A stretch of 63,047 bases of DNA, counting the filler, from Collodictyon triciliatum (Eukaryota): NCBI GenBank assembly GCA_043381765.1. It is 7 parts of 7 records of this genome, joined end to end, with 100 filler letters (N's around TTAATTAATTAA, not from the genome) between each part and the next. Parts side by side here need not be neighbours in the genome. Positions count along the whole stretch, not along the records: positions 10,218 to 20,363 come from JBHJMP010002791.1; 6 more parts are not named here. One strand, given 5' to 3'. Of the stretch, positions 12,816 to 13,217 are shown one piece after another; the first letter of the stretch is position 1, and each line of letters opens with the position of its first letter. The notes under the pieces were generated by a model that was not told the DNA's origin, did not search any database, and was given only the letters and a program-made list of their open reading frames with translations. Both the position numbers and the translations under genes were made by a program.

Positions 12816-12978
12816 AACTGATTGCAATAAAACTGAAAAGTAGCATGGGGAAAAACTCGAAGATGGAGACACAGCCCGCGTCACCCCTTTGCTTAAAGTT
12901 CTCACAAGGCTATAATCAGGCTTTCCAAGGTCGACCGGGAGCAAAAAAAGCGAAAAGAAAAAAGAAAAAAGAAAAAAA

Positions 12979-13014
12979 AGCGTTTGCCGGGAATCGAACC
13001 CGGGTCGAAAGCTT
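12979..13014 (-). tRNA. Isolated 3' half of a tRNA-Gly(TCC)-like gene with oligo-T terminator; 5' half absent
   Basis: The minus strand reads AA GCTTT CGAC CCGGG TTCGATT CCCGG CAAACGC then T8. This has a perfect T-arm/B-box and matches eukaryotic tRNA-Gly 3' halves (..GACCCGGGTTCGATTCCCGGCCAACGCA). There is no GCGTTTG acceptor strand or A-box upstream. Confidence 0.7.
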
Positions 13015-13217
13015 TGTGTCTTGTCCTTCGCAAGCGATTATAATGTGTAGTCTCGACATAACGGAAGCCCTTTTGTTGCTATTTTTTGGTGCTTTTTTTT
13101 GGTGCTTTTTTTTGTGCTTTTTTTGTAACCACATATTCAGGATCTTCCACACAGCCGCGCAGCTTCCTTTCACCCAGCCGAGACCGCCTTCACGATTGAC
13201 CTCTTCTACGCCCACAG

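Follow-up and report, generated by a model that had tools for sequence, protein, structure and literature searches.

A stretch of 35 nt on the minus strand of the Collodictyon triciliatum genome (assembly GCA_043381765.1) derives from a tRNA-Gly, of which it retains positions 37/38 to 72, and it is probably the relic of a nuclear, cytosolic-type tRNA-Gly gene that was truncated from its 5' side and kept its B box and native terminator. All coordinates refer to the window, meaning the whole stretch of DNA that was analysed (63,047 nt), which consists of seven parts from seven records with 100 filler letters between them; positions 10,218-20,363 are JBHJMP010002791.1, and adjoining parts of the window need not be neighbours in the genome. 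The window is eukaryotic in character, with split exons and abundant microsatellites. The host is a little-known freshwater flagellate protist from what appears to be a poorly sampled lineage, because the best relative of its P5 ATPase exon is a transcriptome protein of only 74% identity, the next having 50% and all others at most 57%.

The initial annotation had described a minus-strand tRNA segment from position 37/38 to 72 followed by a run of eight T residues (T8), and each of its segments was found on reading the sequence, with the following layout:

12980-13014, minus strand: tRNA-Gly 3' portion, positions 37/38-72, 35 nt
13014-13013, minus strand: A37/A38
13012-13008, minus strand: anticodon-stem 3' strand, GCTTT, 5 nt
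13007-13004, minus strand: variable loop, CGAC, 4 nt
13003-12999, minus strand: first strand of the T stem, CCGGG, in a perfect 5-bp stem
12998-12992, minus strand: T loop, TTCGATT
12991-12987, minus strand: returning strand of the T stem, CCCGG
12986-12980, minus strand: acceptor 3' strand, CAAACGC
12979-12972, minus strand: T8, directly after position 72, a putative native polymerase III terminator
12990-13000, minus strand: B-box-like 11-mer GGTTCGATTCC, inside the T arm, the sole exact copy in the window

The 11-mer was called with the B-box consensus; one-mismatch B-box matches elsewhere in the window number three, all of them without a T-stem context. Position 73 of the fragment, the discriminator, is a T, the first of T8, and on the same reading no CCA follows the acceptor strand. 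A run of at least eight T residues starting within 0-2 nt is found at 0.6% of window positions.

A metagenome contig collection was scanned for exact matches to the 27 nt that extend from the variable loop to position 72. Two loci on metagenome contigs were recovered, both of them intact 71-nt tRNA-Gly genes (L001, tRNA-Gly(GCC); L002, tRNA-Gly(TCC)) that are identical to the last 27 nt of the fragment. The fragment and L002 agree at 31 of 35 positions with position 73 counted, the differences being three anticodon-stem bases and position 73, which is A in both intact genes. A covariance model (R1), built from these two genes and run unfiltered over the window, scored the fragment at 28.7 bits (E ~3e-6 by a rough calibration), and among the 11 matches listed with E up to 10 the other ten all have E > 1. 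The intact genes themselves reach 98.5 and 99.8 bits, values that are high by construction, R1 having been made from them. In Rfam, the fragment gave only a T-arm-sized partial match within the tRNA clan, to tmRNA (16.1 bits, E = 3.3e-4 in a 1.1-kb search). The fragment thus derives from tRNA-Gly, the match being far beyond chance. The 27-mer had no match in 185,579 prokaryotic species genomes, nor in a viral contig collection, and the tRNA is therefore taken to be of the eukaryotic cytosolic type; an organellar or prokaryotic origin was rejected on the same absence. L002 itself lies on a 25.7-kb metagenome contig (2207-2374, minus strand), where tRNA-Ile(TAT) and tRNA-Gly(TCC) are 23 nt apart; its Gly gene is followed by an A run and no T run, which is atypical for a nuclear polymerase III gene.

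Since T8 abuts position 72 and CCA is lacking, the sequence that follows the fragment is its native 3' flank, as expected of part of a gene left in place and not of a copy of a mature tRNA. A retrocopy of a mature tRNA half was accordingly rejected, given the missing CCA and the native-looking T run. The primer-binding site of an LTR retroelement on the plus strand was considered as well and discarded, because the complement of the tRNA end has no TGG ahead of it and because reverse transcriptase and integrase families were both absent among the scanned ORFs.

The rest of a tRNA gene was sought throughout the window. ARAGORN reported no tRNA in the window; Rfam gave no match at gathering score, and its whole-window E-value scan contained no tRNA-clan match. 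What the fragment has of a functional tRNA gene is the T arm with the B box and the oligo-T terminator, while it lacks a complete cloverleaf (none by ARAGORN or Rfam, and 28.7 bits with R1) and, ahead of the B box, a D arm containing an A box and the 5' strand of the acceptor stem. The initial annotation had already noted that the site has no D arm/A box and no GCGTTTG acceptor strand, and the searches agree with it. GCGTTTG occurs six times in the window against 5.66 expected; one of these is the fragment's own complement, none of the remaining five copies is followed by a D arm, and no copy lies near the fragment. When G-U pairs were allowed, the window contained 20 acceptor-compatible 7-mers, none of them with U8, A14 and G18G19. 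A D-arm-like sequence, GTGGTCCAGTGGT (9896-9915, minus strand), was rejected as a chance match; it lies antisense in a coding exon of the P5 ATPase gene and has no tRNA fold.

For a more direct comparison, the 5'-terminal 37 nt of each intact gene were aligned locally to the 160 nt upstream of the fragment. Among 1000 shuffles, 893 and 889 equalled or exceeded the resulting score of 12, as did 1708/1914 and 1817/1903 random window samples. The element AAGGG-CT-TCC-G, proposed earlier as a TCC anticodon loop, therefore stands at chance level. In the 200 nt downstream no 5' half was found (1822/1912 and 1599/1893 background samples score as well). The R1 and 7-mer searches of the 63 kb and the alignments to the flanks agree with the earlier statement that no matching 5' half was found in the window. 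For the suggestion that the leader might pair with a complementary 5'-half trailer, no partner was found within the 63-kb window: the complement of the 47-48 nt leader occurs there only as scattered 12-mers with one mismatch. A permuted tRNA gene, against which the initial annotation had argued from the position of T8, was rejected, since T8 abuts position 72 and the 200 nt downstream are at background.

The flanks of the fragment conform to the earlier description of about 48 nt of non-tRNA sequence (47 nt as measured), then AAGGG-CT-TCC-G and A-rich repeats, and contain the following elements:

13015-13061, minus strand: unique non-tRNA sequence, 47 nt, abutting the break, with no second copy in the window
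13042-13037, minus strand: TATAAT, starting 28 nt before the tRNA-like part
13037-13031, minus strand: TCGCTTG, a pseudo-acceptor strand that pairs 5/7 with the acceptor 3' strand in the R1 alignment
13062-13072, minus strand: AAGGG-CT-TCC-G, candidate anticodon loop, a chance resemblance by alignment against shuffles
13071-13125, minus strand: A-rich 13-nt repeat array, 4.4 copies, upstream
12944-12977, minus strand: T-rich 7-nt microsatellite (AAAAAAG on the plus strand), 4.9 copies by Tandem Repeats Finder, running on from the terminator

The A-rich array upstream and the T-rich array downstream form an imperfect inverted repeat (33 nt, 73% complementary), and many A/T-rich arrays of 7-nt or 13-nt period are scattered through the window. 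The T hairpin is the only robust structure in the region: folds of 42, 94, 147, 59 and 67 nt gave z values from -0.58 to +0.64, one fold test having z = -0.58 with 53 of 200 shuffles equally good, and 246 of 1000 shuffles did as well when no constraint was set. A 6-bp arm can form beside the T arm (13030-13025 with 13011-13006), and in combination with the pseudo-acceptor and the T arm it would produce a D-armless tRNA-like shape. When forced, this shape has a predicted energy of -12.1 kcal/mol, compared with -16.5 kcal/mol for the unconstrained fold, and 58 of 500 leader-only shuffles forced into it fold equally well or better. The predicted tRNA-like fold is treated here as a product of chance.

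The fragment lies in ~5 kb without recognisable genes, flanked in the window by the genes for a P5 ATPase and an RNB-domain protein, with microsatellites on both sides of it. The annotated genes in its surroundings are:

4726-9900, plus strand: P5-type ATPase gene
15603-17116, plus strand: RNB-domain (RNase II/R-like) gene, two exons
17638-18072, minus strand: exon of CFA20 (cilia/flagella-associated protein 20), E = 4e-37

LRR genes are also present in the window. Three ORFs closer to the fragment (11395-11841, 12125-12673 and 13190-13747) match no Pfam family and lack credible homologues, the two matches of the ORF at 13190-13747 being repeat-driven at 19-26% identity, and integrase, transposase and reverse transcriptase families were found in none of the 45 ORFs scanned. 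The protein-atlas clusters nearest to the RNB gene are all bacterial, and the enzyme may be organelle-targeted or transferred; the CFA20 exon indicates that the organism probably builds flagella or cilia. Among the repeats, a perfect (TTG)x34.7 microsatellite occupies 13784-13887 and a long AAT/ATT trinucleotide array lies at ~9940-10057, just beyond the ATPase gene. Weak matches to two other RNA models were recorded: a C/D-box snoRNA-like match to the SNORD111 model at 61975-62057 (plus strand; 31.2 bits, gathering score 46, E = 0.16), possibly a genuine snoRNA in a divergent lineage, and a full-length match to the U6 snRNA model at 27266-27362 (plus strand; 20.3 bits, gathering score 44, E = 1.4). 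N blocks of 228 nt (19213-19440) and 492 nt (51718-52209) interrupt the window. Paired 44-N blocks recur about every 10.2 kb (10118-10217, 20364-20463, 30582-30681, 40783-40882, 50978-51077 and 61172-61271), and their regular spacing looks like masking rather than biology.

Of the three readings offered in the initial annotation (a split-tRNA half gene, a B-box-driven non-coding RNA and a truncated pseudogene), the tests favour the truncated pseudogene, and the split-tRNA half found no positive support. The grounds for truncation are that the window contains no 5' half, no partner of the leader and no permuted arrangement, and that the folds are at shuffle level; what is left is clearly tRNA-derived sequence without parts essential for function. 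The gene would have been broken within the anticodon loop, between positions 36 and 38, by a deletion or rearrangement that took away the D arm and its A box, the acceptor 5' strand and the anticodon arm's 5' side, and left positions 37/38-72 in place together with the gene's own oligo-T terminator. Such a relic would be unable to yield a tRNA, and accurate initiation by polymerase III would not be expected without an A box. It may nevertheless remain a TFIIIC site, because the B box is a high-affinity site for this factor, and the intact B box could still be bound in the manner of B-box-only ETC sites. Three observations count against a relic, namely the undecayed 3' half, the position of the break at the canonical intron/split site 37/38, and the TATAAT upstream. 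The undecayed 3' half suggests a recent break; put more broadly, a 3' half without decay, except possibly at T73, is either young or under constraint.

Several other origins were weighed against truncation. It is unlikely that the fragment is a stand-alone polymerase III unit, in which the TATA-like element, B box and T8 would give rise to a 40-60 nt RNA composed of a short leader and a T-arm minihelix, that is, a genome-encoded small RNA resembling a tRNA half. Such a unit is conceivable because TATAAT starts 28 nt upstream, and the exact B box, the T8 that follows and the undecayed 3' half are in keeping with it. However, TATA[AT] at 22-35 nt upstream is found at 5.2% of window positions and the motif was spotted post hoc, inheritance from the parent gene explains T8 and the B box equally well, and the folding is no better than that of shuffles (z = -0.58, 53/200 as good). 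We consider it rather improbable that an intron-containing tRNA-Gly(UCC) has left this remnant, with AAGGG-CT-TCC-G as the anticodon arm of the 5' exon, the 47 nt as the intron, and an A-rich repeat array that overwrote the D arm and acceptor strand. The canonical intron site is also where the break falls, a CTTCC with a purine after it is present 47 nt upstream, and AAGGG can be read as pairing with 4/5 bases of GCTTT; yet the 160 nt upstream are at shuffle level against tRNA-Gly 5' halves, and a decayed 5' exon beside a perfect 3' exon is hard to square with neutral decay. Taken together, a separately transcribed nuclear gene for a 3' tRNA-Gly half (TATA-like element at -28, B box and T8), whether its product were a trans-spliced half or a tRNA-half/minihelix RNA, is very improbable. 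The trans-spliced form, in which this would be the 3' half gene of a split tRNA-Gly whose leader pairs with the trailer of a distant 5' half to form a splicing motif at 37/38, is extremely unlikely. In its favour, the half is free of decay and ends in a terminator of its own, and 37/38 is the joining position of the Aeropyrum split tRNA-Asp in the excerpted text of PMC3218864. Against it, the 63-kb window contains neither a 5' half nor a complement of the leader; the sole TATA-like element at -28 would allow a leader of only a few nt, whereas the archaeal 3'-half leaders described in that excerpt are 20-25 nt long and G+C-rich (PMC3218864); and the literature reports of split tRNAs that a limited search returned are from Archaea alone.

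Recombination and assembly were considered as further sources of an orphan 3' half. Prokaryotic integrative elements leave orphan tRNA 3' segments that start in the anticodon loop and keep the original downstream flank. The fragment has this same geometry, and it could be an attR-like tRNA 3' duplicate with the host terminator, marking the far end of an element integrated in a tRNA-Gly gene. This is highly unlikely here, given that no tRNA was found on the same strand in the 50 kb upstream (in window coordinates), that the upstream region holds ordinary cellular genes, some of them intron-bearing (RNB, CFA20, LRR), and that none of the 45 ORFs scanned belongs to an integrase, transposase or reverse transcriptase family; the window thus shows neither an intact upstream tRNA nor mobile-element genes between it and the fragment. 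There is similarly little chance of an assembly artefact that joined the 3' half of a tRNA-Gly to unrelated sequence. The assembly is a draft with N blocks, and the fragment is situated between low-complexity arrays; but the junction at 13014/13015 lies in unique, non-repeat sequence, and a misjoin within a multi-copy tRNA family would leave a whole tRNA. It is extremely unlikely, finally, that a longer minus-strand transcript uses the fragment as a tRNA-like element for 3'-end processing, folded through the pseudo-acceptor (13037-13031) and the arm 13030-13025/13011-13006 and cleaved by RNase P in the way that MALAT1 yields mascRNA. R1 does align TCGCTTG as the acceptor 5' strand with 5/7 pairs, the 6-bp arm adjoins the T arm, and an A-rich array lies upstream; against these stand an Rfam mascRNA-menRNA score of 16.1 bits compared with a gathering score of 42.5 (E = 3.9), the 58 of 500 leader shuffles that match or beat the tRNA-like fold, and an A-rich array that stops ~33 nt before the structure, with no U-rich motifs upstream.

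If the fragment is a truncated relic, it matters little: in a flagellate protist from a little-sampled lineage, it would record where a tRNA-Gly gene once stood and where TFIIIC might bind, and it would show that an orphan tRNA half alone is no proof of a split gene. An expressed half or a split nuclear tRNA, if true, would be the first for eukaryotes and would bear on the origin of disrupted tRNA genes.

Among known systems, the archaeal split 3'-half genes (Nanoarchaeum, Caldivirga, Aeropyrum and Staphylothermus), as far as the excerpted text of PMC3218864 describes them, resemble the fragment in their start at 37/38, the non-tRNA sequence upstream and the terminator downstream. In contrast to them, the fragment belongs to a eukaryote, has no 5' half or complementary trailer in the window, and its likely leader is very short and not G+C-rich. 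A 2014 review of permuted genes, in its excerpted text, states that no split tRNA was found in Cyanidioschyzon (PMC3978253). The permuted tRNA genes of Cyanidioschyzon, green algae and Thermofilum share with the fragment a 3' half and a TATA-like element within 50 bp upstream; in these genes the 5' half follows the 3' half at a distance of 1-74 nt and the two are not separated by a terminator, according to the same excerpt (PMC3978253), whereas here T8 follows at once and no 5' half is present in the 200 nt downstream. The mascRNA family (RF01684) is similar in that an A-rich tract precedes a T arm and what may be an imperfect acceptor helix. Unlike mascRNA, the fragment is far below the family threshold, folds at chance level and has no U-rich triple-helix motifs; neither the family match nor the stable tRNA-like fold of a mascRNA-type element was found. 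The tRNA 3' duplicates at the ends of integrated elements are likewise orphan 3' segments from the anticodon loop with the original downstream flank, and differ in that the window has no mobile-element genes and no same-strand upstream tRNA.

Two comparisons concern the favoured truncated relic. The B box is the main, nanomolar binding site of TFIIIC, and ETC sites are B boxes bound by TFIIIC without TFIIIB or polymerase III, in the excerpted account of PMC12409998. The fragment resembles them in carrying an exact B-box-like 11-mer without an A box, at 12990-13000, in an intergenic position. With the truncated tRNA pseudogenes of eukaryotic nuclear genomes the fragment shares a partial tRNA from which the acceptor 5' strand, D arm and anticodon are gone and which tRNA finders miss; it departs from them in that its surviving part is undecayed and its strong terminator has been kept. 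The observation is real and its explanation most likely ordinary.
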